Positions 4,133-63,779 of a stretch of 64,000 nt of DNA are shown piece after piece. The number at the start of each line of letters is the position of its first letter. Position 1 is the stretch's first letter. The stretch spans positions 194 through 64,193 of the forward strand of contig JACQTY010000103.1 in the NCBI GenBank assembly GCA_016210545.1, read 5' to 3'. A program made the translations under genes and the position numbers. The DNA is from Chloroflexota bacterium. GTDB lineage: Bacteria; Chloroflexota; Dehalococcoidia; JACVQG01. The notes beneath the pieces were generated by a model. That model was given only the letters and a program-made list of their open reading frames with translations, was not told the DNA's origin and did no database searches.

Positions 4133-4135
4133 TGG

Positions 4136-10222: not shown

Positions 10223-10474
10223 ATAGGCGTTACATATCCCCCGTCGGTCTGATTTAGTGTAGCACAAGCTTCTGTAAAGGGCAACAGCATGGCGCTGAGC
10301 GCGACCCGATAGCCCATCTGCCCCGGCTGCCGAAGGCGGCGCGGGCCGACGGCCAGAGCCCTCAAGGAATAGCTCGCTATGGTTGCGTGATGTGGAACGT
10401 CAACTCTGAAGGCGGCTGGCGTCCCTCGACAAGCAACAATACTGGACTACCAGCATACGAAAAGAAGACACGTC

Positions 10475-15552: not shown

Positions 15553-17034
15553 TTGAGACAAATTAAGAAGGTACTCCTCATCAACCCCCCCTGGTACCGG
15601 CTTTTCGGTGAGGAGTCACCCAGTTCCCCTTTGGGGCTTTGCTATATCGGCGCCGTACTGGAACAAAACGGGTACGACGTAGCGATCTACAATGGCGATT
15701 TCTCCAAATCTGGCATTGGGTTGCCCTCGGCTACCAAGAAGACCACGATGTACGAGACCTACCTTCATGCCCTGCAGGACCCCGGCCACTCCATCTGGAG
15801 TGAGGTACGTGCCGTGGTCTCCCAGCAGAAGCCTGACGTGGTAGGCATCTCCCTTCGCACCTCGGCCTATGGCTCCGCCATAAACGTGAGCCGCATTGTA
15901 AAGGAACTGGACCCCACCATACCTGTAATATGGGGGGGCGCCCACCCTACCGTTCTGCCTGGCGAGGCAATCAACAACGCCAACGTAGACATCGTAGTAC
16001 GCGGCGAGGGTGAGAACACAGTCCTGGACATTTTAAGAAGCAGGGATAACCTGGAGAGTGTCCCCGGGATTACATACAAGAAAGATGGTCGGATTATTCA
16101 CAACCCGGACCGCGCCCTCATCCCCAACCTCGATGAGTTGCCCTTTCCCGCGCGCCACTTGATACTAGACTGGCAAAGCTGTCCTCCGGAAGCCTTGGGA
16201 AACATCTTCGCAACCCGCGGCTGCCCCTACGATTGCGTCTTCTGCGCCTCTCACAAAGTATGGAGCCGCAAGGTAAGGTACAGGTCAGCAGCCAATATCA
16301 TCGCCGAGCTTCAACACCTGCAGCAGAAGTTCGGTGTCCGCCAGTTCTCTTTTGAGGACGACAGCTTCACCGTGAACAAGAAGCTGGTCAGCGAATTCTG
16401 CAGCGGGCTCCTGAAGGCTGGATTGAAGATCAGGTGGAGATGCGAGACCAGGGTGGACCTCGTTACCAGGGAACTCGTAGAGCAGATGAAAGGGGCGGGA
16501 TGTGAGGAGATATTCCTGGGCCTGGAATCGGGCAGCCCTGAGACCTTGCGCCGATTAAAGAAGGGTATCACCGTTGAGCAGATGAATACGGCGGCGGGCG
16601 TTTTGCGGCAATCTGGTATACGCTTCAGCGCCTTCTTCATGATCGGGTTCCCCTGGGAGACAATGAAAGAGATAAACGAGACCCTGACGCTGATGAAGGA
16701 GTTGGACCCCTTTGCCATAAACCTGAGCATCGCCACTCCTTATCCCGGGACGGAGTTGCATAAGATATGTATCGAGGAGGGCGTGGTCTCGGGGAACATG
16801 GACTGGAGCACCTTTTTCCATCAGAGCCCCGATATGTTCTTCTCCAATAAGTTCTCGCGTCAAGAAGTCAAAGAGATTATCAAGAAAGCTCAGTTGATAG
16901 TTGAGCGGCATAACCGCATCAAGAAGCGGCAACTGGTCCTGTTCGAGCCGCTCTACGTGGCCAAGCGCGTCATCAAAGGCAGGTACTATTACCCCAAACG
17001 TCTGTGGAGTCTACTACGTTACATATCAGGTTGA
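15553..17034 (+). CDS. B12-binding domain radical SAM protein (class B rSAM), paralog 1
   Basis: TTG start. N-terminal cobalamin-binding Rossmann-like region (LLINPPWY...VVGISLRT...WGGAHPT...VVRGEGE). Radical SAM cluster motif GCPYDCVFC, and FLGLESGS and IGFPWET. Closest to paralog 4. Confidence 0.85.
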   Translation: MRQIKKVLLINPPWYRLFGEESPSSPLGLCYIGAVLEQNGYDVAIYNGDFSKSGIGLPSATKKTTMYETYLHALQDPGHSIWSEVRAVVSQQKPDVVGISLRTSAYGSAINVSRIVKELDPTIPVIWGGAHPTVLPGEAINNANVDIVVRGEGENTVLDILRSRDNLESVPGITYKKDGRIIHNPDRALIPNLDELPFPARHLILDWQSCPPEALGNIFATRGCPYDCVFCASHKVWSRKVRYRSAANIIAELQHLQQKFGVRQFSFEDDSFTVNKKLVSEFCSGLLKAGLKIRWRCETRVDLVTRELVEQMKGAGCEEIFLGLESGSPETLRRLKKGITVEQMNTAAGVLRQSGIRFSAFFMIGFPWETMKEINETLTLMKELDPFAINLSIATPYPGTELHKICIEEGVVSGNMDWSTFFHQSPDMFFSNKFSRQEVKEIIKKAQLIVERHNRIKKRQLVLFEPLYVAKRVIKGRYYYPKRLWSLLRYISG

Positions 17035-17086
17035 CGCCATCAGGACCGACCACGATCATGAGAGACATGTCAACGACCAGGAACGG

Positions 17087-19486
17087 ATGAACTTGCTCAA
17101 GACCTTCATACTGTTATCGATCGCGGCTCTGCTATCCTCCTGCGCTGCCTTCCCCTGGCTACCACAGAGGCAGACATTGCCTCTTGGGAGACTGACGGGA
17201 AACGCCAAGGACGCCGGCTCCGCTAAGGACGGCATGAATCTCGGCATGGTCGTGGACCTTACCGGCCCGCTGGCATTGGCAGGTAAAGACGCTATTGCCG
17301 GAGCAGAACTTGCCATAGAGCAGCTAAACGAGGCCGGCGGCATCAAAGAGCAGCGGGTACGCCTTTTGGTGAGGGACGCAGGCGGTGCCAAAGCGGCGGC
17401 TCAAGCCCAGTCCTTGGTTAGCGATTACCAGGTATCTGGCATCATTGCACCCCTGTCCAGTAATGATGCCTACTCCATCGCTCAAGCCGTGGAAAGACGG
17501 GCACTGGTTTTCACCTACGTCGCCAATGCTGCTTACATGACCACCGAATGGGAGACCCCCAAGTCTCTGTTTCAGATCGGCCCGAGCGACTATATGGAGA
17601 GCAAAGCCCAGGCAGTGGACCTCTCGGGCCAGAAATATGGAAGGTACTTTGTGGTTGGCGCGGACACCGTTGAAAGCAGGGCTCGGGTGAGCGCCTTCGA
17701 GGAATGGCTAGCAAAGCTGCAGCCTGGCGTCACCTTCCTGGGAGCGATGTGGCTCTCCCCGGGACAACATGTCTATGGGGCCGCCATAGACAAGGCTCTA
17801 GCAGCTCAGCCAGACCTGGTTTACTCTACGCTTGAAGGCAGCGATCTGGAGGCTTTCACCCGGCAAGCGAAAGCACGGGGTTTTTTCGAAAGGGTGGCGT
17901 TTACAGCCCCCTACGACGTAGGTGTACTTCAATCATTGAAGAGCGACATGGTCTCAGGAGTCCGAGCCTACTCTCGGGCGCCATTCTTTGCGCTGAGCAG
18001 CGCGCCAGCCATGGCCTTTGTCCAAAGATACTGGGCCAACACCGGCAAATATCCTTCCGACGCTGCCGTTTTGGCGTATGAAGCAGCAAGGGTTTGGGCG
18101 CAAGTAGGTGCTAGCAGTGATTCCCTGAGCTGGAGTGACCTCCTGAGGGTGGCGGAGGGAATGAAGTTTGAATTCCTGATGGGCAGCGGGTATTTGCGGA
18201 GCCTGGACCACCAGAGTAGCCTCGGCTCGTTTGTCGGCTACACCCAGTGGAGCGACACATACGGGTTTATGACGTATCGTGGTCTCAAATACTTGTCCGC
18301 TGACGGTCTGTGGCGACCAGAGGGAGAGGTGAAAGAGATAAAAGAGCGGCCGCCAGCTAGCAAGTTGGCTATGGTCTCTGATATTTCCAAAGAGTTAGCT
18401 TCAGTTGTCAAAGACGCCGGCGCCGCAGCCGAGCTTGCCGTAGAGGAGATAAACAGAAATGGCGGTCTGCTGGCGCGGCAGGTGAAGTTAGTCCAGCAGG
18501 ATGCATCGGACGATGCCCAGAGGACCGCGGAGAAGTTGGAGGAGCTTATTATCGGTGGCGGGGTGTCGGCAGTCATCGGGCCAGTGAGCAATAGCACAGC
18601 GGCGCAAGTGATAGGCATTGCCAAGGTACGCGACGTAGCAATGTTTTTTAGCTACGCGAATAGCGAACGTCTCACGATGAAGTTGTACAACGAAAAGGTT
18701 TTCCAGGTAGGACCCAGTACGTATATGACCGGGCGTCTGCAAGCTCTGGCCCTTTCGGAAGAGAAATACACTCGCTATTATCTCCTGGGCCCCCGCATTG
18801 GAGCAGCCCAGGAGGAAGCGAACGCATTCAAGGAGTGGATGCAGAAACTAAGGCCCGACGTGAGATTCGTGGGCGAGGTCTGGCTGCCGATGGCTACTCA
18901 GGACTACGCGCCGGCAATCAACACGATATTGGCAGCCAGGCCCGAGATGGTCTATTCAAACTTACAGGGAGAGGACCTTGTCCGGTTTACACGCCAGGCA
19001 AAAAGCCAGAAGTTTTTTGAACAAGTAGCTTTTGCTGCTTCCTATGACGTGGGCGTACTTCAGGAGCTAAAGGGAGACATGCCCTCAGGGGTAAAAACGT
19101 TCGCCCGCGCCCCTTTCTTCGCCTCGGATGACCCGGGGCTAAAGCAGTTTGTAAACCAGTACCGTGCTCGGACATCTCTCTACCCTTCGGACGCAGCCGT
19201 ACTTACCTACCAATCGGTTATGCTGTGGGCATTTGCCGTAAGCAATGCCAATAGCGTTACCGGATATCATATAAGCCGGTTCCTGGGAGGAAGGCAATAC
19301 GCAAGCCTTTTCGGTCCCCGGATACTCCGATCCGTGGACCACCAGGAAAACGCAGGCATCTTTACGGGCTATACTGAGTGGAGTAACGAATACGGTTTCA
19401 TGGTCTTCAGGGACACGAAGTATCTTCCACCAGAAACTGTGTGGCGTTCGCCCGGAGAGGTTAGCGCCATCAGGCTAGCGCCTTAG
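17087..19486 (+). CDS. lipoprotein with two tandem type-1 periplasmic binding (LivJ/ANF-receptor-like) domains
   Basis: Start at MNLLKTFILLSIAALLSSCAAF (lipobox) after an AGGAA SD. The two halves are homologous, for example FTRQAKARGFFERVAFTAPYDVGVLQSLKSDMVSGV versus FTRQAKSQKFFEQVAFAASYDVGVLQELKGDMPSGV. Confidence 0.7.
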   Translation: MNLLKTFILLSIAALLSSCAAFPWLPQRQTLPLGRLTGNAKDAGSAKDGMNLGMVVDLTGPLALAGKDAIAGAELAIEQLNEAGGIKEQRVRLLVRDAGGAKAAAQAQSLVSDYQVSGIIAPLSSNDAYSIAQAVERRALVFTYVANAAYMTTEWETPKSLFQIGPSDYMESKAQAVDLSGQKYGRYFVVGADTVESRARVSAFEEWLAKLQPGVTFLGAMWLSPGQHVYGAAIDKALAAQPDLVYSTLEGSDLEAFTRQAKARGFFERVAFTAPYDVGVLQSLKSDMVSGVRAYSRAPFFALSSAPAMAFVQRYWANTGKYPSDAAVLAYEAARVWAQVGASSDSLSWSDLLRVAEGMKFEFLMGSGYLRSLDHQSSLGSFVGYTQWSDTYGFMTYRGLKYLSADGLWRPEGEVKEIKERPPASKLAMVSDISKELASVVKDAGAAAELAVEEINRNGGLLARQVKLVQQDASDDAQRTAEKLEELIIGGGVSAVIGPVSNSTAAQVIGIAKVRDVAMFFSYANSERLTMKLYNEKVFQVGPSTYMTGRLQALALSEEKYTRYYLLGPRIGAAQEEANAFKEWMQKLRPDVRFVGEVWLPMATQDYAPAINTILAARPEMVYSNLQGEDLVRFTRQAKSQKFFEQVAFAASYDVGVLQELKGDMPSGVKTFARAPFFASDDPGLKQFVNQYRARTSLYPSDAAVLTYQSVMLWAFAVSNANSVTGYHISRFLGGRQYASLFGPRILRSVDHQENAGIFTGYTEWSNEYGFMVFRDTKYLPPETVWRSPGEVSAIRLAP

Positions 19487-50420: not shown

Positions 50421-51362
50421 CTAGGCCCTTATCTCCTGCCTCATGAAACGGACGTAGCCGATAGCGAATACCACCAGAGTCAGGGCCACAATTGTAGTCA
50501 ATTGCGGCCATACCAGATTCAGGCTCTGACTCAAGCGGAGAGGGGTCGGGATGAGCCCCTGCACCTGCTGCACCAGTACCGGGCCGAGCGTACGCACGCC
50601 AGGGCTGACGATGGTGCCAATGGCCTCGTCATAAAGCGTGGTAGGGGACATGCGCATTATGCCCTGACGCAGATTCGCGTTTCTCACCAACAACTCCGGC
50701 GGCGACCCCTCATTGACAGGAATCGCGGCGTCAGCTGCAGCGCCGGCAATCATGACCATAAAAAACGAGAGGAAGACCCACAGGGCAATCGCCCCCAGCG
50801 CTGAAGTAGCGGTCCTGCGGAACAGGATGGAGAACAGGATCGCCAGACCCAGCCAGAAAGCGATGTATATGATACTTGTCATCACAAAAAGCAGCAGCCG
50901 GAGCATCTCCTCCTGAGTCGGCGGCACGCCAATTAGCTGTAGACCCAGGCCGGAGACGATCAGTATCAAGCTCAGCAACATCACAGTTATGGTAGCTACG
51001 CCGGCCAGGAATTTACCGTTGATAACGGAGTCACGGTACAGCGGCTGAGAAAGTACCCGGCTCATGGTGCCTTCGGACATCTCCCGGTTGATGGCGTCGA
51101 AACCCAGGGCCAGCCCCACCAGCGGGCCGAAGAAACCAATGAAAGACACAAAAGGCGGCAACAGTCCACTGGATGATGTGAAAACCCGCAGGAACACGAA
51201 ACGCGAATCGGGGTTCGAGGCCAACTCAGAACGTATGGACTGGGCTGCTACATACGTGGCCCACAAGCCAGCCAGGCCAATGATGGCGAACAGAATGAGA
51301 AAACGCCGGCTCCCCATATGGTCCGACACTTCTTTCCAGAAAACTGCCAGCATCCCGCGCAT
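50421..51362 (-). CDS. ABC-2 family transporter permease
   Basis: 6 TM helices with an ABC-2-like topology. Directly downstream of the ABC ATPase, with ATG/stop overlap at 51362. Confidence 0.7.
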   Translation of the reverse strand: MRGMLAVFWKEVSDHMGSRRFLILFAIIGLAGLWATYVAAQSIRSELASNPDSRFVFLRVFTSSSGLLPPFVSFIGFFGPLVGLALGFDAINREMSEGTMSRVLSQPLYRDSVINGKFLAGVATITVMLLSLILIVSGLGLQLIGVPPTQEEMLRLLLFVMTSIIYIAFWLGLAILFSILFRRTATSALGAIALWVFLSFFMVMIAGAAADAAIPVNEGSPPELLVRNANLRQGIMRMSPTTLYDEAIGTIVSPGVRTLGPVLVQQVQGLIPTPLRLSQSLNLVWPQLTTIVALTLVVFAIGYVRFMRQEIRA

Positions 51363-52300
51363 CAGTGGGCCTCCCGGAAATACCGCAGGTAAATTTCCTC
51401 CAGCGTGTAGTCCTGCAGCCGCATCTGAAGCAGAGCGCTCCTGGTCTGGGTAACGGCTTTGGCCACCAGGGAACGCACCTCTTTGTCCGCAGCTATGGTC
51501 AACAGGTCACCGGACTTCTCCACGTTAAGGACTCCCGGTATCCGCTTGATGGAATCCACAAGCTCCGGAGTCGCCGGCGAAGCCTCAACGTCCAGGGTCG
51601 TTTTCCCTGCCTCCAGCTTCTTCCCAAGTTGGTCGACGCTGCCCAAAGCCACCATCTTGCCCTTCACCAGTATGCCCACCCGGCTGCAAATGCGCTGGAC
51701 CTGGTATAGCATATGGGATGACAACATGATCGTCATCTTTCGCCTGTGGCTCAGGTCCACAATCAGGTCAAGTATCCTCGCCGAACCATCGGGGTCAATT
51801 CCCAGAGTGGGCTCGTCCAGAATGATTACCTTAGGGTCCTTTATCAGCACATCGGCAATCCCCAGGCGCTGTTTCATGCCTCTGGAAAACTCCGCGACCT
51901 TCTTGTCGCCAACGTCTGGCAGTCCGACCACCTCCATCATTTCCGAGACCCTGGAGACCGCCAGCTTCTCCGGCACGGCGTTGAGGCGGGCTGTGTACAT
52001 CAGGTTCTGCCGTGCAGTCAACTCGCCGTAAAAGCCGACGTTCTCGGGGAGGTAGCCTGTCAGTCGCTTTACTTTCAGCGGCTCTCTGGCCGAGTTGTAA
52101 CCGCAGACCCTGGCCGCCCCCGTTGTGGGTTCGGTAAGGCCCAGAAGCATGAGAATAGTGGTGGTCTTCCCAGCGCCGTTCGGCCCCAGGAAACCGAAAA
52201 TCTCACCCTCCTGCACCTGCAGGTTCAGACGGTTGACAGCGACAAGCTCGCCGTAAACCTTGCTCAGATTCGTAGCATCGATGATAGCCTGGTCTGCCAC
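51362..52300 (-). CDS. ABC transporter ATP-binding protein
   Basis: Walker A GPNGAGKTT, Q-loop, Walker B ILDEPTLGID, and an LSGG variant embedded in FSRGMKQRLGIA. Start placed at the GTG at 52298-52300 (VADQAIIDATNLSKVYG). The track ORF extends to 52384. Confidence 0.85.
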   Translation of the reverse strand: MADQAIIDATNLSKVYGELVAVNRLNLQVQEGEIFGFLGPNGAGKTTTILMLLGLTEPTTGAARVCGYNSAREPLKVKRLTGYLPENVGFYGELTARQNLMYTARLNAVPEKLAVSRVSEMMEVVGLPDVGDKKVAEFSRGMKQRLGIADVLIKDPKVIILDEPTLGIDPDGSARILDLIVDLSHRRKMTIMLSSHMLYQVQRICSRVGILVKGKMVALGSVDQLGKKLEAGKTTLDVEASPATPELVDSIKRIPGVLNVEKSGDLLTIAADKEVRSLVAKAVTQTRSALLQMRLQDYTLEEIYLRYFREAH

Positions 52301-52302
52301 GC

Positions 52303-53499
52303 TTACCGCCTGCCTAAACGCACGAATATCCCGGCCAGCCCAGCTACCACCACCACCACGATGCCAATACCTACCGCTCCCCACTTGGTTGGCGTGCTGA
52401 CAGTGACCCGGATGTCCTTGGTGCTGGAACTCCGCTGCCCCAGGGCGTTCAGACTTATCGCGTAATCGCCGGCGATCGTCTTGTCCGGCGCCTTTATCTT
52501 GACGCTTACCTCTCGTATCTCCGCGGCAGCCAGGGTATCGATCTTCTCCGGTTCAAACTTGATGTCCCAGCCGTCAGGCTTCGTCGAAGAGAAGGATATG
52601 CCCTTTACCTCGGCTGTTCCGATGTTGGCCACCACCAGCGCCATGACGCTCTCCTGACCGGCCACGGCATCGGCGTTGAGACGGCCAGTTGGCGTGGTCA
52701 CAAGTATGTCATAGCTACCCGTCACCCCCACCTTGAGGTTCAACGTCTCCTGGACAGACCCCGATCGGGCGGTGAAGCTGACAGGAAAGTCGCCCGGCGC
52801 CTGCCGTTCGTTAGGCGTTAGGATAAGGTTTACACCCTTAGTCTCGCCGGCTTTGAGGCTGATGGTGGATATCTGCTTCTTCTCGAAGGCAGGCTCCACA
52901 GATGTTGTCCATTGCTGCGGCGCCCCTTTGACCACCAACTCGAAAGTGCGGTCCGTCCGCCCCTGGTTGGTCAGGTCAATGTTGAACTGAATGCTGGCCC
53001 CGGCAGGGGTGCTTACCTCCGGGTACAAAGTTACCATCTGCACCTTCTCGGCGGTGGCCCCCTGGGCCTGTATTCCGATGGTAATCCTGAGGGTGTCCTG
53101 GACCTGCTTGTCTCGCGTGATAGCCTTCAGGTCAAAGGTGTAGTCGGAGACTGCCGCGTCAGCCGGCGGTTTCGCCCTGAACGTTACCTCCTGCTCTTTC
53201 CCCGCGGCCACATAGACGCCGCGAAGTCCGAAACTGAAGTCGCTGAAACGAGCTTCCCAACCGCTCGGCGGCGAAACAATCTCCAGGTCAACGAATTCCC
53301 CGTCCTTACCGGTATTGGCAACCCGGACGGTGAGGCGTGCGTCATCCTCCCTGCCGATCACTATACTCGTGAACTCGGGAAGGAGCCGAATGCCCCTCGC
53401 AGGCTGGGCAGTCGCCAGAGCCGGAAACACCATGAGAGTGACCAACACACCAACCGCAAGCAAAGCCAGACTGCGGGCCAGGCAAGACTTCAGAAGCAT
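52303..53499 (-). CDS. secreted, C-terminally membrane-anchored protein with repeated beta-sandwich (NEW3/CARDB-like) domains
   Basis: Signal peptide, several roughly 100-aa repeats rich in T/V with NxG/DG turns, and a C-terminal hydrophobic anchor followed by RLGRR. Confidence 0.45.
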   Translation of the reverse strand: MLLKSCLARSLALLAVGVLVTLMVFPALATAQPARGIRLLPEFTSIVIGREDDARLTVRVANTGKDGEFVDLEIVSPPSGWEARFSDFSFGLRGVYVAAGKEQEVTFRAKPPADAAVSDYTFDLKAITRDKQVQDTLRITIGIQAQGATAEKVQMVTLYPEVSTPAGASIQFNIDLTNQGRTDRTFELVVKGAPQQWTTSVEPAFEKKQISTISLKAGETKGVNLILTPNERQAPGDFPVSFTARSGSVQETLNLKVGVTGSYDILVTTPTGRLNADAVAGQESVMALVVANIGTAEVKGISFSSTKPDGWDIKFEPEKIDTLAAAEIREVSVKIKAPDKTIAGDYAISLNALGQRSSSTKDIRVTVSTPTKWGAVGIGIVVVVVAGLAGIFVRLGRR

Positions 53500-55119: not shown

Positions 55120-55485
55120 CTATTGTGCCGTTTGTTGCCATATTTTGCAAGGGGTGGCCGCAACCGAAATCCGCCGCCCATTCAATCTCACGAAACAGAA
55201 CGATTCTTCGCCTGGCTGGTGCAGCAACTTGGTCCGGGCGCAGCTTGCGGCAAATAGGCGGCCAACCCACCTCTCCCTTTCGAAAATCCCGATGAATCGG
55301 GATGAGCCGAGCGAAAGCGAGTCCTGAGCCTGTCGAAGGATCTCCGAAGGGGAGCTTGAGCGGGATTTGATGGCGGATTCAGGGCCGCAACACAATGCAG
55401 TTTCCTCTATAATGTAGCAGTAACCTGACGCGCCGGATACATGGCGGGTCACCGGCTGGCGAAATTCGACATCGGGGGGACTAGC

Positions 55486-56856
55486 ATGGGTCGGATAATC
55501 ACCAATGACGGCCCTTCCAACATAAGACCCTTCCTCGAGCCAGACTCAATCGCCCTTGTGGGCGTACCCCGCCGGACGGGTCGGGCGTCGTTCAATATCC
55601 TGGAGACCCTCCTGACCTGCGGCTTCCCCGGGAAACTGTACCCCGTAAACCCAAACGCCGATTCGCTGCTGGGGGTGAAGGTCTATCCTGATACCGATTC
55701 CCTTCCCCACGGAATCGAGCTGGCTGTAATCATGGTCCCAAGGGACATGGTGCTGGGGGCTGTCAGAGGCTGCGCCCGCCGGGGCATCAAAGCCGCCATC
55801 ATAGTCAGTGAGGGTTTCGCCGAAGCCGGAAAAGACGGCCAGTCCCTTCAGGTAGAGGTGGTAGAGGCCGCCCGCGCAACGGGAATGCGGCTCGTGGGAC
55901 CTAACTCGCTCGGCTCGATGAACAACTTCCTGCCCTTCAGCTCTTCTTTCCTACCGCCACCGCCCGTAAAGGCCCCGGTAGCCCTTGTCTCTCAGTCGGG
56001 CGGCTTCCTGGAGGGGTTTTCCGATTTCGTGGCTGGAAAAGCCATTGACCTGGGCAACACCTGCGACGTAGACTTCGTTGACTGCCTGGAATACCTCGAA
56101 ACTGACCCTGATATCAGGCTCATAGTGTTGCACATCGAGGGTATGAAGCGGGGGCGTCGTTTCCTGGACATCGCCAGGCGTGTGAGTAGACAGAAGCCGA
56201 TCCTAGCCCTGAAGACAGGCCGCACCGGCGCCGCGGCCCGTGTCATAGCCTCCCATAGCGGCTCGTTGGCCGGGCAGGATAGGGTCTACGACACCGCGTT
56301 CGCCTGCGCGGGGATCATGCGGGTGAAAGATGGTGACGAGCTAAGCGACGTAACCAGGGCCCTTCTCCACCTGTCGCCTCTGAAGGGCAATCGGATTGGA
56401 ATAGTCACCCCAACCGGCGGCTGCGCCATCATGGCTGTGGATGCCCTGGTCCAGGAAGGACTCGAGTTGGCCCAGCTTTCCACGCAGACCGTCGAGCAAT
56501 TGCGGGAATATTTCTCCAAATGGGCGCCCCCGAAGAACCCCCTCGACATGCTGTCGGCGGGCATGTCTTTCGGATACAAGAAGGTCTACACCGCCTGCCT
56601 ACAGGGGCTGCTCGATGATCCGGAAGTCGATGCCGTCATATGTATCGCTGGTTGGCCAACCGTAAAGACCATCCAGGAGACGGCCCACGGCAAGTCAAAA
56701 CCGGTTGTCACCTGGGTACAGGGGCGCTGGACCGGAGAGGTGTCTGCCCGGCTGGAGGACACCGGCTACAAGACCGCCTACCCGACGCCGGAGCGCGCCG
56801 CCCGGGCCCTCTCGGCTCTCCGGCAATACAGTAGTTGGAAGAACAGATACAAGTAG
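55486..56856 (+). CDS. NDP-forming acyl-CoA synthetase alpha-like protein (CoA-binding + ligase-CoA domains)
   Basis: IALVGVPRR...GKLYPVNP (CoA-binding Rossmann), and LVGPNSLG and SQSGG motifs of the succinyl-/acetyl-CoA synthetase (ADP-forming) family. Confidence 0.65.
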   Translation: MGRIITNDGPSNIRPFLEPDSIALVGVPRRTGRASFNILETLLTCGFPGKLYPVNPNADSLLGVKVYPDTDSLPHGIELAVIMVPRDMVLGAVRGCARRGIKAAIIVSEGFAEAGKDGQSLQVEVVEAARATGMRLVGPNSLGSMNNFLPFSSSFLPPPPVKAPVALVSQSGGFLEGFSDFVAGKAIDLGNTCDVDFVDCLEYLETDPDIRLIVLHIEGMKRGRRFLDIARRVSRQKPILALKTGRTGAAARVIASHSGSLAGQDRVYDTAFACAGIMRVKDGDELSDVTRALLHLSPLKGNRIGIVTPTGGCAIMAVDALVQEGLELAQLSTQTVEQLREYFSKWAPPKNPLDMLSAGMSFGYKKVYTACLQGLLDDPEVDAVICIAGWPTVKTIQETAHGKSKPVVTWVQGRWTGEVSARLEDTGYKTAYPTPERAARALSALRQYSSWKNRYK

Positions 56857-56920: not shown

Positions 56921-57466
56921 TCAGGCCACGTGGCCGATCTTGGGCGGGGGTGGGGTCGGCCCTTTCCAATCAGGAGAGTTCTCCGACTGTATCTTAAGGT
57001 TGCCCGAGGCGTCAAAGAAAGGCCAGAAGATAAAGGCAAGCCACTGCGATGCTTTGTCCGGGTCCAGGTTGAAGTGCTGGTGCTCGCAGCCGCCTGGCTT
57101 CATAGGCAGCACGATCAGATCGTCTTTTTCCCAATCATATCTCACTCCGTCAACCACGGAATAGCCCTTGCCCTCCAGTACGAATAGCCCCAGGCCGCCC
57201 TGGTGCGTATGACGGCCCCCCTGCTTCTTGATATGGTGCACGAAGAGGGCCCAGTGGGGTACGGCCAGGTTCGGCCAGTTCTTGGGATGCGTGTAGAACT
57301 TTATGAGGCCCTGCCGGTTCTGCTCCCAGGGCACGTCTTTCCCTTTGATGACCACCGTCCCCTTTTCCCCCTGCTCCCTGCGGACACGGTAGAACTCCTG
57401 CATGTACTCGAAGATAAGTTCCTCGGGTTCGGGTTCTCTGCGCCGTTCGATGACTTTCTCGGTCAC
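56921..57466 (-). CDS. cupin domain protein (copy A)
   Basis: GTG start after a GGAAGGAAG SD. Cupin motifs HIKKQGGRHTHQGG...LEG and PMKPGGCEHQHFN. 80% identical to copy B. Confidence 0.7.
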   Translation of the reverse strand: MTEKVIERRREPEPEELIFEYMQEFYRVRREQGEKGTVVIKGKDVPWEQNRQGLIKFYTHPKNWPNLAVPHWALFVHHIKKQGGRHTHQGGLGLFVLEGKGYSVVDGVRYDWEKDDLIVLPMKPGGCEHQHFNLDPDKASQWLAFIFWPFFDASGNLKIQSENSPDWKGPTPPPPKIGHVA

Positions 57467-57553
57467 GCTTCCTTCCTTTCTACTCTACGCTGGCCAACAA
57501 CGCCCCGGCTTTGTCCACGTACTCCTTCCTGGAAGACAGTACGCACCCCAAAC

Positions 57554-58702
57554 CTACCTGTTCCACAACTTGACCAGGTACTTGTCGGCGAACAGCTTCG
57601 CCTGCTCGTTCATCATGTCATCCGTCAGCGTTAGCAGCTTCGTATCCACTTTGGCCGCTGGCGGCGTGAAATTCGGTACATCTTTCCTCACCGAGCTGCT
57701 GGCCTTGGCCTCGGCGTTCACTTGTTGTCCCTCTTGAGTGAACAACCAGTTCAGGAACACTCTGGTCGCATTGGGGTGGGGGTTGTCCTTCACCTGCCCG
57801 ATGCCCATCACCAGGGCTACCACACCCTCTTTCATGGAAACCGCCTTTATCGGCGCGCCGGCTTTTACCAGAGATGCCGCATCCGAGTCGACCATGAAAA
57901 GAGACAGGGCGCGCTGCCCCTGGGCCAGCAACTGGGTCTCCTGCTGCACACCCGTGGTAAACCTGATATCCTGATTCGCGAACTGGCGCAACGCGTCTTC
58001 GGTGAAAACCCCGTACCTGACATAACCCACCAAACGGTAAGCGCCGGTGCTGATGGCGGGGTCGGTGGCCATCATCTGGCCCTTCCATTTCGGCTGAAGG
58101 AGGTCCGCCCAGCTCTTGGGCTCGTCACCCGGCTTGACCATGTTGGTATTGATGTAAGGAGGACCCACCAGAGGCATGAATGCCAGTATGACCCCATCCT
58201 TGTCCTGGGACAGCGGCTCCACCGCCCAGACCCCCTTTTCCCCTAATGCCGGCAAACCCTTGGCGCTCGCCGTCATGGTCTCGGCCACCCGGGCGTTGGT
58301 CAAATGAGTCACGGACCCCTCGAACACGTCCGCCGTCATGGCGCCCATCCTCTTCTCGGTCTTCATCCGTTCGACGAATTCCGCGCCGCGGCCCGTTATT
58401 ATGTCCAGGTCAATCCCATACCGGCTCTTGAAGGCCCTCGACATCGCCACACCGGTATCTCCGACCCAGGTATAGCCGTAGACAGTTACCTTGCCTTCCT
58501 TTTTCCCGGCCTGGACCACCTTGTCCCAGGCAGCCTGCTCCGGAGAAGTCTGGGGGGCGCTGACAGGCGCGGCCGCAGTCCTTGCCGGCGCCGGCACGGC
58601 AGGAGCGGGAGCCGGCGGGGGCGCGCAGGCAGCAAGCATCAGAGCGACCAAGGTGGACACAATACCGAGCAGAGCCAATAACTTCTTCATCTTTCGCCTC
58701 AA
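57554..58702 (-). CDS. ABC-transporter substrate-binding lipoprotein (family 1), paralog A, orphan
   Basis: Signal/lipobox LAACAPP, a Pro/Ala linker, and SBP fold homologous to 10475-11617 and 61228-62364. C-terminus FADKYLVKLWNR. Confidence 0.8.
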   Translation of the reverse strand: MRRKMKKLLALLGIVSTLVALMLAACAPPPAPAPAVPAPARTAAAPVSAPQTSPEQAAWDKVVQAGKKEGKVTVYGYTWVGDTGVAMSRAFKSRYGIDLDIITGRGAEFVERMKTEKRMGAMTADVFEGSVTHLTNARVAETMTASAKGLPALGEKGVWAVEPLSQDKDGVILAFMPLVGPPYINTNMVKPGDEPKSWADLLQPKWKGQMMATDPAISTGAYRLVGYVRYGVFTEDALRQFANQDIRFTTGVQQETQLLAQGQRALSLFMVDSDAASLVKAGAPIKAVSMKEGVVALVMGIGQVKDNPHPNATRVFLNWLFTQEGQQVNAEAKASSSVRKDVPNFTPPAAKVDTKLLTLTDDMMNEQAKLFADKYLVKLWNR

Positions 58703-58984
58703 TTCTTGTCTCGCCTGCCCGGAGACTGTCGCTAACCCGGACCCGGCTGACTAAAAGTAATTGCACTCATTCTATCATTTCTCGGCGTTTTGTAAAGCCC
58801 GACCATGGCGCTCGTTTGGGTGCAGCCCCACGGCCAACTGCAAGACAGGGCAAGAGACGCCGAGACAAGGGGGTCCAGACATCGTGTACTCAGGGCCGAG
58901 AAACCCGGGGATGGGGCAAGTCGGGGTTCTGTCGCCGCCTGGGCCAGAAGTGGCCCCGCTGCAGTGGGGCCACTTCTGGCCAGT

Positions 58985-59043
58985 AGCATGTAACGTTTGC
59001 TGTTGATACTGGTGGCACCCCGACTTGTCGGGGCCTGTGCGGT
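58985..59043 (+). ncRNA. copy 2 of the conserved motif plus GC hairpin
   Basis: AGTAGCATGTAACGTTTGCTGTTGATACTGGTGGCAC followed by CCCCGA-cttg-TCGGGG flanked by GCAC...GTGC. Compare copy 1 at 27235-27292, which has 31/35 identical motif positions and compensatory stem changes. Confidence 0.4.
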
Positions 59044-59086
59044 AGCGACAAAGATGCTGCTACAAGGTATTAGGCGTATAGCCTTC

Positions 59087-59629
59087 TCAACCGACGTGAG
59101 GCGGGACAGGCGGCGGTTCGTTGGGGCCTTTCCAGTCGGGGGAAGTCTCCGATTGCACCTTCAGGTTACCCGTGGCATCCCAGAACGGATTGAATATGAA
59201 AGCGAGCCACTCCGACGGCTTGTCCGATAGGTTGAAGTGCTGGTGCTCGCAGCCACCAGGCTTCATGGGCAGCAGGATCAGGTCGTCCTTCTCCCAGTCA
59301 AACCGGACTCCGTCCACTACCGAGTAGCCCTTGCCCTCCAGCACGAACAGGCCGAGACCACCCTGATGGGTGTGCCTGCCCCCTTGTTTCTTGATATAGT
59401 GGACGAACAAGGACCAACCGGGGGCCGCCAGGCTGCGCCAGTTCTTAGGATGGGTGTAGAAGTGGATCAGCCCCTGCCGGTTCTGCTCCCAGGGAACATC
59501 CTTTCCCTTCACTACGATAGTGCCCTTCTCCCCTTGCTCCCTTCTTACCCGGTAGTACTCCTGCAGGTATTCGAATACGAGTTCCTGAGGTTCGGGCTCT
59601 TTGCGACGTTCGACAACTCTTTCAGTCAC
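59087..59629 (-). CDS. cupin domain protein (copy B)
   Basis: GTG start (VTERVVERRKEPEP) preceded by AGGAGGA. Same cupin motifs as copy A. The track ORF start at 59791 is an out-of-frame-looking 5' extension. Confidence 0.7.
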   Translation of the reverse strand: MTERVVERRKEPEPQELVFEYLQEYYRVRREQGEKGTIVVKGKDVPWEQNRQGLIHFYTHPKNWRSLAAPGWSLFVHYIKKQGGRHTHQGGLGLFVLEGKGYSVVDGVRFDWEKDDLILLPMKPGGCEHQHFNLSDKPSEWLAFIFNPFWDATGNLKVQSETSPDWKGPNEPPPVPPHVG

Positions 59630-59640
59630 AATTCCTCCTA

Positions 59641-59781
59641 CTATCTGTTTGCAAGGCCAACGGCTTGACGGTTCCACAGCTTGACCAGGTACTTGGCGCT
59701 GAACAACGTGGCGTACTCGTTCAGCATGTCGGCGGTGAGCACCAACAGTTTGGTCTGCACCTGAGCAGCGGGTAGGCTCAT
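59641..59781 (-). pseudogene. remnant of an SBP gene (C-terminal 46 codons retaining an RBS and ATG)
   Basis: Translates to MSLPAAQVQTKLLVLTADMLNEYATLFSAKYLVKLWNRQAVGLANR*. This aligns to the SBP-A C-terminus ...AKVDTKLLTLTDDMMNEQAKLFADKYLVKLWNR*. The nucleotide sequence also parallels 57554-57640. Confidence 0.6.
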
Positions 59782-60206
59782 TTCCTCTCATATCGAGTAA
59801 TCGCGATAACCTGGCCTCTTGACCCTCTCGGCTCAGGAGGCCAGGTTGCCCCTATTATAAAGGCGCAGTCTCCGGCTTGGCAATAGGGAGAACGTCCAAA
59901 ATCCACCACCCGTTGAATCTTGGCAAAACAGCATCTTTTTCACCAAATTGGTGCAGCAACTGTCTTGGAGAGGCCGCTATGACCTCTCCCTTTGGAAAAG
60001 GGAGACTGAGAGGGATAATGATGGCGGATTAAGAACGTACTGTCACACGCGGGTTATGGGGGATTACGAAGAGGCTGGCAAGTCGTTGGAACCACTACGT
60101 AGAGACGCGCAGGCCAGATCAATGCGCGGTTCAGCCCTGCGGACCGGGCAAGGCCGTCCTATGACGGTCACTGAGCAGATATAGTGGAGCTGCCATCCGA
60201 CAAAAC

Positions 60207-60244
60207 AGGAAGTCCAGGCCCAATAAATTGGGCCTGGACTTCCT
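60207..60244 (-). terminator. rho-independent terminator downstream of the amidohydrolase gene
   Basis: Perfect 16-bp stem AGGAAGTCCAGGCCCA-ataaa-TTGGGCCTGGACTTCCT. On the minus strand it is followed by GTTTTGT. Confidence 0.6.
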
Positions 60245-60306
60245 AAATCTCTGTTCTGCGCGTTACCCACGGCGACGGACAAGACCGGTTCTCCTGGGTA
60301 CCGTCT

Positions 60307-61149
60307 TTACATACCGAACAGACGCATCGTGTTCTTGTAGAATACCTTCTCCCTGGCCTCGTCGCGCATGGGGAACTTCATGAAAGCATCGAGCATAGCC
60401 TTCATCGAGTGCACCGGGTACGCCGAGGCATAAAGCAAGGAGTCCTCGAGAGCGTTATTGGCCGCTTCCAGGTAGAGATTGCCGTTGGGCAGAAAGATGT
60501 AGATGTCGGGCATAATGAAAACGTTGTTGTAGCGGAAGCCCAGGGCTATCATCTCCATCACCCAGGGGTAGCCCCCGTGCACCACAGCGATATTGAGTTT
60601 GGGGAAGTCCTTGGCAACCTGCTCGATGGTCCGGGGATGGCCCCATTCGATGCCCTCTCCGATGAAAGGAGTATCCAGAAGAAATACCGGGACCCGAAGC
60701 TCCTGGCACTTATCGTACATTGGGTAGAGGCGCGGGGCATTGAACTGCATGGGAGGACGGACGACCCCCGGCTCCATGCACACGCCCTTGAGCCCCAGGA
60801 CTTTGATGGACCGCTCGATCTCCGGCAGCGCCTTGTGCAAGGTGTTCGAAGGGTCTATCCCGGCCACTCCTATGAGTTTGTCAGGATATTTATTGACCAG
60901 GTCCGCAATGTGATCGTTGGAGACCTGGGCGCCGGGGACGCCCGGCGTGTTGCGGTGGCAGACGACAGCCTTGCTGAGTCCCGCCTCATCGAACTCCTTC
61001 CACCACATGTTCAGGTCGTGGGTCAGCATCGACTTAGGCTGCTCCCAGCGGGCCACCCGCGCCGAGATCACCTTCTTGTACCACCCCGATTCGAACATCC
61101 CCGTGGACTCCGGCGTCGGCGGCCGGTTCCTGGCATCTATTATCATCAT
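60307..61149 (-). CDS. amidohydrolase-2 (PF04909-like) TIM-barrel protein, non-canonical N-terminal metal site
   Basis: 280 aa with the ACMSD/LigW-like fold features (VVHGGYPW, FIMPDIYI). The N-terminal strand reads IIDARNRP instead of the usual IDxHxH. Confidence 0.65.
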   Translation of the reverse strand: MMIIDARNRPPTPESTGMFESGWYKKVISARVARWEQPKSMLTHDLNMWWKEFDEAGLSKAVVCHRNTPGVPGAQVSNDHIADLVNKYPDKLIGVAGIDPSNTLHKALPEIERSIKVLGLKGVCMEPGVVRPPMQFNAPRLYPMYDKCQELRVPVFLLDTPFIGEGIEWGHPRTIEQVAKDFPKLNIAVVHGGYPWVMEMIALGFRYNNVFIMPDIYIFLPNGNLYLEAANNALEDSLLYASAYPVHSMKAMLDAFMKFPMRDEAREKVFYKNTMRLFGM

Positions 61150-61227
61150 GGCTCAGATACTCCTTTCAAACTTTACTCGGCTGTCCGCCTTCATTGGAAC
61201 TAAGGCATTGTCTGGACCGGTCGGGAT

Positions 61228-62364
61228 TCATTGCCCGCCGAACAATTTGTCCAGTTCTCTCTCGCGCTGCACGCGTGCTGTCTCCAATTGGTCGCTCAGG
61301 TCCATATCTATGACCTTCTTCGGCTTCACGACAGCGTCCTGTGGGACGAACTGAGGAACGTCGGAGCGCACGGGGATGAGGCTCTTCGCCTCGCCGTATA
61401 CCCGCTGGCCCGGGTTGGAGAGCACCCAGTTGGCGAAGAGCCGGGCAGCGTTGGGGTGGGGGGCGTTCTTCACTATGCTTATCCCCGAGGACAGGCTGGA
61501 GACGAGACCCTCCTCCATGTATAGCGCCCGCACCGGCGCTCCCTTTGAGATCGTGTCGCCGAAAACTGTGGCCGAAAGCTCGGGGGCGATAGCCCGTTCG
61601 CCAATGGAGACAATCTGAATAGAGTCTCTAATGCTGGGCGCTATCTTAAGATCGTTGGCCGCCAGCCGGCGGAACCAGTTATCATCCAGTCCTAGCTGGC
61701 TGCGCTTGACATACAAGTATATTATGTTCGGGGTTGTTGCGGGAGCGGCGACGACTGCCTTCCCCTTCCACTTAGGCTCTATCAGTTCCTTGAAGGTGCG
61801 GGGCTCCTCCCCGGGCTTGATGAGTTTGGAGTTTATGAACGGCGTGCTCAGGGACACCGACCAGGCAAAGACGTGCCCCTCCACATCCACACGGGGAAAA
61901 GAATACCAGACGTTGCTTTCAGCCAGGACCGGCAGGTTACCCGCGGCCTCAGTAAGTCCGGCCGCCTTGGCCTGTATCAGGATAGACACAGCGGTATCGA
62001 ACGTATCAGCTATGTCCTTCTTGGCGGCTTTCTCGCTTTTTAGCCTCTCCAGCAACTGGGACCCCAGCCCGGTCACGAATTCCAGGCGGATGCCGTATGC
62101 ATCCTCAAAAGCCCTGGCCACCTTCTGCCCCGGGTCCCCCGGCAAATTGAAGGTGTACATAGTCAGGCGGCCCTCCCGCTTTGCGGCGGCTACGGTCCTG
62201 GCCCAGGCGTCGTCCTGAGCAGTCGAACGAACAGCCTCGGGGGACGGTGATGCCGCCGGAGAAGACGGCGTTACGGCGGGAGGCGGCGGAGGGGCAGCCG
62301 CGGGGGCGCAGGCCACTAGCGCCAGCATAAGGACCGGGAGGATGAACCAGGCGGACTTGCGCAT
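61228..62364 (-). CDS. ABC-transporter substrate-binding lipoprotein (family 1), paralog C, orphan
   Basis: Start at MRKSAWFILPVLMLALVACAPAAAPPPPP, Pro/Ala linker and SBP fold. The track ORF start at 62505 is a 5' extension. Confidence 0.8.
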   Translation of the reverse strand: MRKSAWFILPVLMLALVACAPAAAPPPPPAVTPSSPAASPSPEAVRSTAQDDAWARTVAAAKREGRLTMYTFNLPGDPGQKVARAFEDAYGIRLEFVTGLGSQLLERLKSEKAAKKDIADTFDTAVSILIQAKAAGLTEAAGNLPVLAESNVWYSFPRVDVEGHVFAWSVSLSTPFINSKLIKPGEEPRTFKELIEPKWKGKAVVAAPATTPNIIYLYVKRSQLGLDDNWFRRLAANDLKIAPSIRDSIQIVSIGERAIAPELSATVFGDTISKGAPVRALYMEEGLVSSLSSGISIVKNAPHPNAARLFANWVLSNPGQRVYGEAKSLIPVRSDVPQFVPQDAVVKPKKVIDMDLSDQLETARVQRERELDKLFGGQ

Positions 62365-62768
62365 AGAGTCAGACCCCCTCCTCACTTGTTCATGAGGGCA
62401 ATTGCAAAGCGGGTAAAGCCTGTTTGTAAGGAAATAAGATGGCCCGATTATAGCACAGTTTTGGGTGTTGTAAAGCGCGCCGAGAGAGAAAAATCTGCGG
62501 GACACTTAGCAGGTGGCAAAATGCCCCGTGTCAAATCGTTCAACAAGTAACCCAACGGCTTCCGGAGGGCGAATATCGTTACGACGGAATAGAGCATCCC
62601 TACCCTTTAGTGTGGGCTAAAAGCAGTTTTCCCTATACTTTTGGGCATGCTAATCTCGCTCTTTATTGTAGTGTTGAAAACCACCCCCAGGCATATGGCA
62701 CATACACCACCATAGTGGCAAAATAGTAGTAGGCGAGGCGCTTAATCAAACTCGGAGGTAAGAGAATC

Positions 62769-63779
62769 GTGATTAAAAGGCATAAACTGGTATTCATGGT
62801 GCTGGCAATATTAGCAGTCGGGGTATTCCTGTTGAGCGCTTGCCAGGGGGCTGTAGGTCCAGCGGGGCCTCCCGGAGCACAAGGGCCAGCTGGGCCATCT
62901 GGCGCCCCTGGAAAAGCTGGTGTTGCCGGAGAACGCGGCCCGGCGGGGCCAGCCGGTCCTGCCGGCCCGGCGGGTCCTGCCGGAGCAGCGGGGAAAGCCG
63001 GGGAAAGGGGACCTGCAGGACCAGCCCCAACCCCGGCTGCGCCCGCTGTTTCCATGCCTATGACAGGCGCCATGCCTGCCGGCGGCGCGATGCCATCCGC
63101 GGCCTTAATAGCCGAGGGCAAAGCTGCGTATGCCAAGAGTTGCGCCGCATGCCACGGAGCCAACGGTGAAGGCACGGCTATAGCGCCTATGGTGGCTGGC
63201 CACAGTATCACAGCGGTAAAAATCCAGGTGAGAACCCCTATAGGAAAGATGCCAGCATTTCCGCAAGCCCAACTTAGCGATACGGATTTGGATAAAGTAG
63301 CAACCTTTATTCGCAGCCTGGGACCGGCCGCAAGCCCTGTTCTGGCCTGGGAGAAGGCCGCTCCGGAAACCATGCATCTATGGATGTTTCTACTCGCCAT
63401 CAAAACTAATGAAATTGCCGATGCGAAGCAGCACCTTCAGGATGCCCTGACTTTAATTAAGGAGCCACAACATAAGACCGAGATGGATAAAGCGTTGGAC
63501 TTGCTGAATAAAGGCAACCTTCACGATGCAGAGCACGAGATTGAGGAAATGGCTGGATCTGAAGCCCCGTCCGGTGTGACTTTGCAGCGGTTTCATCTCA
63601 CCCTGGCGATGAACGCTAACGACGCCAAGAGCGCGGCGGAGGTCAAGAAACATCTGGAGCGGTTTGCATTGAAGGCTACCGATAAGCAGAAAGCCATTGT
63701 GGAGGAGACCCTGGAGCTAATCGCCAAAAATGATTTCCACGAGGCCGAGCATGAGATTGAGGAGCTGCTACAAAGTTAG
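62769..63779 (+). CDS. lipoprotein fusing a collagen-like (GXY)20 tract, a class I c-type cytochrome domain and a His/Glu-rich helical repeat domain
   Basis: Signal plus lipobox LLSAC. 20 uninterrupted Gly-X-Y triplets ([12 protein letters not shown]...GERGPAGPA). Heme-binding CAACHG with a downstream IGKMPAF (Met ligand). Two roughly 55-aa repeats ending in [10 protein letters not shown] / [18 protein letters not shown] 10 nt before the GTG. Confidence 0.75.

Follow-up and report, generated by a model that had tools for sequence, protein, structure and literature searches.

A bacterial locus in which binding-protein genes are paired with small enzyme genes and not with transporters raises the question of how it arose and what it does. 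We addressed this for a locus in a Chloroflexota bacterium of the class Dehalococcoidia (GenBank assembly GCA_016210545.1, contig JACQTY010000103.1, positions 194 to 64,193 of the forward strand); the whole stretch of 64,000 nucleotides is called the window below, and coordinates count from its first letter. A preliminary description had read positions 56921-62364 as a triplicated module of a solute-binding protein (SBP) plus an enzyme, caught in mid-decay. We found two old SBP+cupin cassettes, one of which had its SBP gene broken by a rearrangement, next to an independent SBP+amidohydrolase cassette. The anatomy of the locus, the orthology of its genes, the breakpoint, the family relationships and the gene-neighbourhood statistics were observed directly, and a role is proposed from them.

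Anatomy of the locus

The gene set claimed by the preliminary description was found complete and on the minus strand, where it reads, 5′ to 3′, SBP-C, amidohydrolase, 46-codon open reading frame (ORF), cupin B, SBP-A and cupin A. Three relatives were compared: L086 (JGI Ga0209514_10007736) and two Dehalococcoidia metagenome-assembled genomes (MAGs), L002 (GCA_015661045.1) and L003 (GCA_015661355.1). The genes are:

56921-57466, minus strand: cupin A, 181 aa, starting at GTG; monocupin in which the HxH...H motif is invariant, Cupin_2 at 30.5 bits
57554-58690, minus strand: SBP-A, 378-aa lipoprotein, lipobox LAAC; orthologue of L002 SBP2 and L086 SBP2
59087-59629, minus strand: cupin B, 180 aa, GTG start after AGGAGG; intact; orthologue of L002 cupin1 and L086 cupin1
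59641-59781, minus strand: 46-codon ORF with the SBP-B remnant, from tblastn, blastn and codon alignment
60307-61149, minus strand: Amidohydro_2 protein, 280 aa; BB4693-like clade, without HxH
61228-62364, minus strand: SBP-C, 378-aa lipoprotein, partner of the amidohydrolase
10475-11617, minus strand: fourth SBP lipoprotein paralogue, from Pfam
55441-56856, plus strand: ADP-forming acyl-CoA synthetase alpha-type gene, convergent with cupin A

The Pfam families at the locus were SBP_bac_8/6/11/1, Cupin_2, Amidohydro_2 and Succ_CoA_lig. The two cupins were related as proposed (82% identity, E 1e-110), and the 46-codon ORF matched the C-terminus of SBP-A at 26 of 35 residues (E 3e-16). Self-comparison revealed the duplicated unit, with 57066-57365 repeated at 59229-59528 (79%) and 57560-57661 at 59671-59772 (74%), and the pairwise DNA alignment of the two SBP+cupin units stayed collinear all the way between the 3′ end of the SBP gene and the stop codon of the cupin gene. 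SBP-A, which is 100% identical to database protein P0121, shared 34% identity with SBP-C and 44% with the SBP at 10475.

Age of the SBP+cupin duplication

In L086 the gene order is SBP(379)-cupin(180)-SBP(382)-cupin(181)-CoA ligase, followed by the same downstream genes as in the window, and L002 likewise shows the window's order, SBP-cupin-SBP-cupin-CoA ligase; the shorter L003 contig stops inside the second module. Synteny of the acyl-CoA synthetase gene (55441-56856) was kept in both L002 and L086. Each cupin was nearer to its L002 orthologue than to its paralogue (82%): cupin B shared 89% identity with L002 cupin1 and cupin A 92% with L002 cupin2, with cross-pairs at 81-82%. SBP-A was 72% identical to L002 SBP2 and 65% to L002 SBP1. 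Synonymous sites were saturated in all comparisons (proportion of synonymous differences, pS, 0.72-0.83; 0.72 between cupins A and B), and the nonsynonymous proportion (pN) was low in the cupin comparisons (0.05-0.13). A recent duplication would have left low synonymous divergence and the paralogues as closest relatives, and we found neither. Since both copies have orthologues and pS is saturated, the roughly 79% nucleotide identity of the window copies reflects strong purifying selection on an ancient duplicate, not a recent event. The two SBP+cupin cassettes are an old tandem duplication that preceded the split from the related Dehalococcoidia. The units are thus true paralogues, as the idea of a segmental duplication implied, but the orthologues of both copies in relatives and the pS values contradict a recent event caught in mid-decay.

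The modules have met different fates in the relatives. In L003 the module-A SBP and cupin are joined in frame in a 561-aa protein (2480-4165; ...KYLVKL-H-MTERVV...), an extra 40-nt deletion frameshifts the same SBP-cupin junction in L002, and both modules are intact in L086. Failure of different copies in different lineages suggests that modules A and B overlap in function. The L003 lipoprotein may be either a pseudogene intermediate or a genuine exported fusion. The locus is a clean small case of paralogous uptake-and-enzyme cassettes being shuffled and lost.

A rearrangement breakpoint within SBP-B

When the window was compared with L002, L003 and L086 by blastn, all alignments stopped at window position 59778, which defines one further feature:

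59778-59779, no strand: rearrangement breakpoint, at the end of blastn homology in L002, L003 and L086

The break lies at about codon 342 of the 379-codon orthologous SBP. Of the 46 codons of the ORF, 37 (59668-59778) are SBP-derived and correspond to the last 37 codons of the ancestral SBP; they matched the intact orthologous SBP C-terminus of a relative at 29 of 38 residues by tblastn (76%, E 2.5e-15) and at 29 of 37 in the codon alignment (78%), where identity to SBP-A was 70%. The SBP-B stop has changed from TAG to CAA, so that eight further codons are read until a TAG (59641-59643) closes the frame immediately ahead of the Shine-Dalgarno sequence of cupin B. No other piece of SBP-B was found in 59600-60320, where tblastn (word size 2, E<=10) recovered the C-terminal 38 residues only.

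The two sides of the junction have different histories. Upstream of SBP-B, L086 and L002 carry genes for a 479-aa secreted protein and a 735-aa protein, and no homologue of either was found anywhere in the window. The window has at this place a promoter-like site, an element resembling repetitive extragenic palindromic (REP) sequences, a strong terminator, the amidohydrolase and SBP-C, and the region upstream of the remnant showed no similarity to the ancestral SBP-B promoter region. Because homology stops at 59778 and the upstream neighbours differ from those of the relatives, the truncation of SBP-B is a rearrangement junction. The event is a rearrangement with a breakpoint inside SBP-B, and a large deletion or a translocation could both fit.

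These data revise the simple deletion first proposed. The middle SBP gene has indeed been destroyed, but what is left of it amounts to 37 codons without their stop and not to 46. It had also been said still to carry a ribosome-binding site and an ATG; the ATG (59779-59781) sits exactly at the homology boundary on the foreign side, with a Shine-Dalgarno-like GAGG just 2 nt ahead of it. Since neither is in the homologous part, both arose with the junction and do not survive from the SBP gene. The rearrangement placed the unrelated SBP-C+amidohydrolase cassette, with its terminator and REP-like element, against the 37 remaining codons, and the 46-codon ORF is what is left of a gene, with an ATG that came into being where the two sides met. 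Cupin B is intact and is probably expressed now from the new upstream sequence. The remnant gave no signal of relaxed constraint (pN 0.12 versus pS 0.75), which fits a recent truncation and by itself is no argument for function.

An assembly artefact, that is, a chimeric join of two regions at 59778/59779, would mimic such a truncation. The junction is present in a single assembly, independent Logan contigs of the same run end at about 60011 and 59032 and do not span it, and its exact 30-nt string is absent from JGI metagenomes. However, the junction has no repeat that could cause a mis-join, the Logan break at 60011 falls at the REP-like repeat and not at the junction, and the paralogues (74-79% nucleotide identity) are too divergent to collapse, so that we consider an artefact very improbable. 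We also hold it to be quite unlikely, though somewhat less so, that the 46-codon ORF has been kept as a functional small gene, for example as a translated leader coupling translation to cupin B. Its 37 SBP-derived codons are free of stops and frameshifts, their divergence looks constrained (the pN and pS above, with 78% identity; a hand count gave about 73% identity for the same segment in SBP-A and L002 SBP2, which are both intact), and 11 nt separate the end of the ORF from the start of cupin B, whose Shine-Dalgarno region the ORF overlaps. Yet recent truncation alone would give the same substitution pattern, the junction-born ATG has poor Shine-Dalgarno spacing (2 nt), cupin B owns a strong AGGAGG and GTG conserved with cupin A, and the exact product is not on record in the protein collection. 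A rearranged and truncated SBP-B gene is therefore the reading that we retain; it is real but fairly ordinary gene-family evolution.

We also observed a 234-codon ORF (59087-59791, minus strand) that prolongs cupin B upstream across the SBP remnant in a different frame. This long form of cupin B was rejected as a frame artefact; it is probably spurious, but automatic annotation of cupin B may be misled by it. Neither cupin B, in its 180-aa and 234-aa forms, nor the 46-aa product was found on record by exact-protein look-up.

The SBP-C+amidohydrolase cassette

The pair at the upstream end had been counted as the third copy of a triplicated module. SBP-C, only 34% identical to SBP-A, has no nucleotide similarity to it, and SBP+amidohydrolase is an independent conserved cassette. 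On four metagenome contigs (L089-L092) an SBP of the same family lies directly upstream of an amidohydrolase 90% identical to that of the window, and no cupin or SBP-cupin locus was found beside the pair on these contigs. In L091 and L092, the two whose downstream sequence was examined, an AMP-binding acid-CoA ligase follows the amidohydrolase; L091 comes from the same sample as L086 and is a different contig. The partner SBP in L089-L092 was only 50% identical to SBP-C although the enzyme was 90% identical, and SBP-A had diverged from its orthologue more than cupin A from its own: the SBPs either evolve faster than their partner enzymes or are swapped. Distant homologues of the amidohydrolase lie after a Liv-type ATP-binding cassette (ABC) transporter ATPase (L083) and between a TAXI-type SBP of a tripartite ATP-independent periplasmic (TRAP) transporter and the DctM permease (L084, L085), and this placement beside different transporter types makes binding protein plus amidohydrolase a recurrent theme across transporter classes.

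The enzyme scored 96.1 bits against PF04909 Amidohydro_2 (cut-off 26.4). It had been likened to 2-amino-3-carboxymuconate-6-semialdehyde decarboxylase (ACMSD), a comparison that did not hold. Its N-terminus reads IIDARNRPP where ACMSD-type enzymes have HxH, and among 24 aligned homologues D5 was invariant, R7, R9 and P10 were conserved in at least 90%, and HxH was absent. The nearest solved relative was BB4693 of Bordetella bronchiseptica (PDB 3IRS/3K4W), matched over the full length (3IRS, E 7e-42), whereas the match to ACMSD covered residues 75-157 only (E 3e-6). BB4693 shares the IIDxRxRPP motif that replaces HxH and the HG(x)YPW and AYP motifs. It is itself an uncharacterised Amidohydro_2 protein, so the match names a clade and not a reaction, and a literature search on it found nothing relevant.

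Binding proteins without a transporter

SBP-A matched SBP_bac_8 at 49.3 bits (cut-off 27), and SBP-C and the SBP at 10475 scored similarly. As read from the sequence, all three have an N-terminal hydrophobic helix, an L/V-A/V-A-C lipobox and a Pro/Ala-rich linker. The AlphaFold2 model of SBP-A, with a predicted local distance difference test score (pLDDT) of 93, has the two-lobed type II periplasmic-binding-protein fold. Its best Foldseek matches in the PDB were MctA, AfuA/VcA0625, P5PA, the PhnS-like STM0429 and FutA/HitA/FbpA (E 1e-17 to 1e-19). Ligands of the best fold relatives are metal-citrate (MctA) and sugar phosphates (AfuA, VcA0625), and we read all of them as binders of anionic ligands. 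In an alignment of 36 SBP sequences Arg339 was invariant and no tyrosine occurred among invariant or 90%-conserved columns, which makes an FbpA-type ferric-ion site unlikely. It is plausible that the SBPs bind an anionic organic ligand. They resemble the FbpA-like SBPs of structural cluster D (MctA, AfuA, VcA0625, the pyridoxal phosphate binder P5PA and the 2-aminoethylphosphonate binder PhnS) in fold (Foldseek template-modelling (TM) score 0.64-0.81) and in Pfam families SBP_bac_8, 6, 11 and 1, but share only 15-20% sequence identity with them. Characterised cluster D relatives are, as far as is known, encoded with a cognate permease and ATPase.

The claim that the SBPs lack such partners was confirmed within the window. 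A BPD_transp_1 permease or an importer ATPase was found nowhere in the 64 kb, either by Pfam, run on ORFs of at least 150 aa judged to be genes, or by phmmer seeded with two permeases and two importer ATPases. An exporter ATPase was all that the ATPase seeds matched, and the sole ABC system was an ABC-2 exporter at 50421-52384. The fourth SBP (10475-11617) is solitary, with an AAA_2-family AAA+ ATPase gene (8786-10267) on one side and groEL on the other. In JACQUA01, 217 kb sampled around cupins held 22 SBPs, 18 cupins and one permease, that of a ModABC-like system. Cupins have complete importers of the type that fits these SBPs next to them in the Dehalococcoidia MAG L011 and in the Binatia loci L050 and L051; each importer comprises a double BPD_transp_1 permease in fused form, an ATPase with a TOBE domain, and an SBP.

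Two unusual proteins were seen alongside. In L011 (1936-4518) an 860-aa protein fuses a Reg_prop beta-propeller to the double BPD_transp_1 permease; it is preceded by a cupin and a bicupin and followed by a TOBE_2 ATPase and the SBP. In the window, 16901-19486 (plus strand) encodes an 861-aa protein with two Peripla_BP_6 (LivK-like) domains, an orphan binding protein of another family that adjoins radical-SAM and glycan genes with no permease nearby.

The cupin family

A profile search of 1.84 billion cluster representatives with the cupins returned 954 at E<=1e-3, 381 at E<=1e-10 and 102 at E<=1e-30. Among 32 aligned cupin sequences H86, H88, Q89, G90, G91, H129, Q130, H131, F132 and N133 were invariant. 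Against the PDB the profile matched gentisate and salicylate 1,2-dioxygenases only (E 1e-18 to 8e-5). In salicylate 1,2-dioxygenase (SDO) the residues that align with H86, H88 and H129 are the Fe ligands H119, H121 and H160 (2PHD numbering). Foldseek on the cupin model (pLDDT 88.6) likewise ranked gentisate/salicylate dioxygenases first. The preliminary description had suggested an enzyme like 3-hydroxyanthranilate dioxygenase (HAO). No HAO model matched the cupins, Pfam at E<=0.01 gave only Cupin_2, and NCBIfam and the PDB gave only gentisate-type dioxygenases as detectable relatives.

The relationship is distant. The window cupins scored 19.6-25.2 bits against the gentisate (TIGR02272 / NF049978) and 5-aminosalicylate dioxygenase models, whose cut-offs are 442-650, and bicupin relatives reached 27-74 bits against the dioxygenase family cut-offs. 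At 180-181 aa with one cupin domain, the window proteins differ from the bicupin architecture (about 350 aa) of gentisate 1,2-dioxygenase (GDO). The family occurs as monocupins, as a cupin gene adjacent to a more divergent second cupin gene, and as bicupin fusions of 336-381 aa. The cupins belong, by sequence comparison, to a small uncharacterised family distantly related to gentisate/salicylate 1,2-dioxygenases. With the class III gentisate, salicylate and 5-aminosalicylate 1,2-dioxygenases (PDB 3BU7, 2PHD) and the monocupin 5-nitrosalicylate 1,2-dioxygenase (8CH4) they share the cupin fold and the alignment of the three metal histidines, and, as in GDO-type enzymes, the family also includes bicupins. 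They differ from SDO at the position aligned to Arg127, presumably a substrate-binding residue, which is Leu or Ile in the window cupin family.

Cupin neighbourhoods in other genomes

A scan of one genome per species yielded 519 cupin relatives, and neighbourhoods were compared across 78 loci. Adjacency of cupins and SBPs was counted from profile hits to stop-to-stop ORFs, as longest-ORF calling under-counts in high-GC loci. Among the best 80 of the 519, 18 strong cupin hits fell in about 217 kb of JACQUA01 and 13 in about 104 kb of CAZFEA01. Within four genes of a cupin we found other cupins (41), Amidohydro_2 (22 genes in 14 loci), the window SBP family (17 in 12 loci), CDC48-like AAA ATPases (15), UbiD (8), NMT1 SBPs (8), gamma-glutamyltranspeptidase (8), short-chain dehydrogenases/reductases (SDR; 7) and Rieske oxygenase alpha subunits (6). 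Co-occurrence of Amidohydro_2, UbiD, Rieske and SDR genes across the 78 loci makes a loose link to aromatic or organic acids plausible; of the aromatic catabolism first proposed this much stands, but the HAO/ACMSD identity does not. A literature search on the association of SBPs and cupins in Chloroflexi found nothing relevant.

A molybdate/tungstate link was considered because of a ModABC-like transporter beside the cupin in L040, a similar three-gene set in L020 and an AOR beside the cupin in L061, and was rejected, as these cases are too few against the recurrent Amidohydro_2, UbiD and Rieske neighbours. Outside Chloroflexi (L068-L081 Acidimicrobiales, L054-L057, L060, L061, L067, L072) a divergent second small cupin almost always follows the cupin, often with a CDC48-like double AAA ATPase next after the pair. 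Several Acidimicrobiales loci (for example L069 and L078) then continue with gamma-glutamyltranspeptidase and have an Amidohydro_2 gene upstream, a conserved cluster.

Probable transcription units and intergenic elements

The intergenic regions contain the following elements:

58769-58796, minus strand: promoter-like site of SBP-A and cupin A, TTTACA-16-TAGAAT, extended -10
58942-58981, no strand: inverted repeat with 20-bp arms, 19/20 complementary, placed after the stop of cupin B and ahead of the SBP-A promoter; no T-run
59854-59883, minus strand: promoter-like site upstream of the remnant and cupin B, TTGCCA-18-TATAAT, 11/12 matches
59897-60016, no strand: conserved intergenic element, 77% identical to L008 819-942, ending in the REP-like hairpin 59983-60016
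60206-60245, minus strand: strong intrinsic-terminator-like hairpin after the amidohydrolase gene, 18 pairs and then a T-run
62447-62474, minus strand: promoter-like site of SBP-C and the amidohydrolase, TTTACA-16-TATAAT, extended -10

Seven promoter-like sites were found against 2.2 expected from shuffles, and that of SBP-A is conserved upstream of its orthologue, L002 SBP2. The inverted repeat at 58942-58981 may mark a transcription-unit boundary. Judged by these signals, each cassette appears to be its own transcription unit, delimited by promoter-like sites and hairpins. An Rfam search of 56.5-62.8 kb gave nothing meaningful.

The REP-like hairpin at 59983-60016 reads CCTCTCCCTTTGGWAAAGGGAGACTGAGAGG. 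It recurs in intergenic DNA of Dehalococcoidia/Chloroflexi MAGs (L008 909-939, L009 1586-1616, L023 10346-10376, L065 392-422 and 8933-8963) and has no Rfam match; a Logan contig assembled independently from the same sample stops at this hairpin.

Other features of the window

The window is ordinary chromosome, with rpsB, tsf, frr, uppS, cdsA, dxr, rseP and groEL and a large glycan-biosynthesis cluster. This surface-glycan cluster (24618-47061) includes five B12-binding radical-SAM enzymes, NeuB, DegT-type aminotransferases, glycosyltransferases and a HepT/nucleotidyltransferase pair; a sixth B12-binding radical-SAM enzyme lies at 15553-17034. Divergent from SBP-C, 62769-63779 (plus strand) encodes a protein that has both collagen-like Gly-X-Y repeats and a cbb3-type cytochrome c domain.

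Proposed role of the cassettes

On balance, we regard it as probable that three independent two-gene cassettes lie here in a row, each pairing a surface lipoprotein SBP with a cytoplasmic enzyme and feeding a shared translocator. Each SBP would capture a small anionic organic compound, probably carboxylic and possibly an aromatic acid, and pass it on to an ABC translocator that many SBP paralogues have in common and whose genes lie elsewhere. The first intracellular step would fall to the co-transcribed enzyme, which in modules A and B is a 3-His metal cupin, a relative of the gentisate/salicylate 1,2-dioxygenases, and in module C a non-canonical Amidohydro_2 protein.

Several points weigh against this proposal. 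The ligand class, the shared translocator (from other MAGs) and the dioxygenase chemistry are what we infer, the cupin fold matches are generic (TM 0.44-0.5, E about 1e-6), and the junction is known from one assembly. Known aromatic-acid SBPs mostly belong to another family, Peripla_BP_6. An SBP is adjacent to only about a quarter of Chloroflexi cupin genes, and this adjacency may partly reflect the abundance of both families. Finally, the anaerobe-typical neighbours AOR, HGD-D and UbiD make O2-independent cupin chemistry possible.

This last point leads to an alternative in which the cupins are not O2-dependent ring-cleavers but catalyse O2-independent isomerisation, decarboxylation or hydrolysis of a non-aromatic acid imported by the SBPs. 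Besides the anaerobe-type neighbours, the scores far under the gentisate/5-aminosalicylate dioxygenase cut-offs (19-25 bits versus 442-650) and the many non-dioxygenase cupins among the fold matches speak for it. Opposed to these are the facts that the only sequence-detectable solved relatives are gentisate/salicylate dioxygenases with the three Fe-binding histidines kept, that Rieske oxygenases neighbour the cupins in Binatia and in one Acidimicrobiales locus, and that the window also encodes hemerythrin and cytochrome c; we take this chemistry to be a serious possibility without favouring it. The orphan SBPs might, on the other hand, be extracytoplasmic sensors or ligand buffers, with the adjacent enzymes co-regulated and not supplied by them. 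No permease or ATPase occurs in the window or in most SBP-rich loci, and the same alternative has been discussed for orphan SBPs of tripartite tricarboxylate transporters, the TTT family (PMC5994714). Nevertheless, a sensory role seems unlikely to us here: no histidine kinase or chemoreceptor was recognised among the annotated neighbours, the recurrent partners are catabolic enzymes, complete ABC importer operons next to cupins include homologous SBPs in L011, L050 and L051, and homologues of the amidohydrolase occur inside operons for TRAP and ABC transporters. We thus keep to capture by an SBP, shared import and a paired first enzyme.

Comparison with known systems and wider meaning

The expanded orphan SBPs and cupins of Dehalococcoidia are a more interesting lead than the locus itself. 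We put forward, as a tentative suggestion, that groundwater Dehalococcoidia may run an undescribed system in which dozens of orphan FbpA-like SBPs, many of them cupin-paired, feed a few shared ABC translocators, which would let the bacteria scavenge a wide range of hydroxy-aromatic or other organic acids. If this were true, the in-frame SBP-cupin fusion of L003 would suggest that binding protein and enzyme are linked directly in function, perhaps even physically. Both the orphan ABC binding-protein surplus and the expanded uncharacterised cupin family near ring-cleaving dioxygenases are under-studied in uncultured Dehalococcoidia. The identities of the ligands would help to explain which organic compounds sustain the abundant subsurface Dehalococcoidia; current understanding would not be overturned.

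A surplus of binding proteins is known from another family. Orphan TTT ("Bug") SBPs are over-represented in Bordetella, Cupriavidus and Rhodoplanes (PMC5994714, PMC5812351), with 434 TTT SBPs in a Rhodoplanes sp. (PMC5994714). SBPs numbering up to hundreds are there served, or left unexplained, by a few membrane components, and shared translocators as well as sensory roles have been proposed (PMC5994714, PMC5812351). In both cases SBP genes have multiplied in a lineage-specific manner beyond the membrane components, form tandem arrays and lie beside catabolic or other genes and not permeases, with sharing of a few translocators proposed. The cases differ in that the present SBPs are ABC cluster D (FbpA-like) lipoproteins of monoderm Chloroflexi, whereas the TTT SBPs belong to Proteobacteria; that the present ones are often paired with one enzyme family, the cupins; and that their scale is known from partial sampling of MAGs. 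The locus described here is the same kind of phenomenon as the TTT/Bug surplus, in another SBP family and another phylum.

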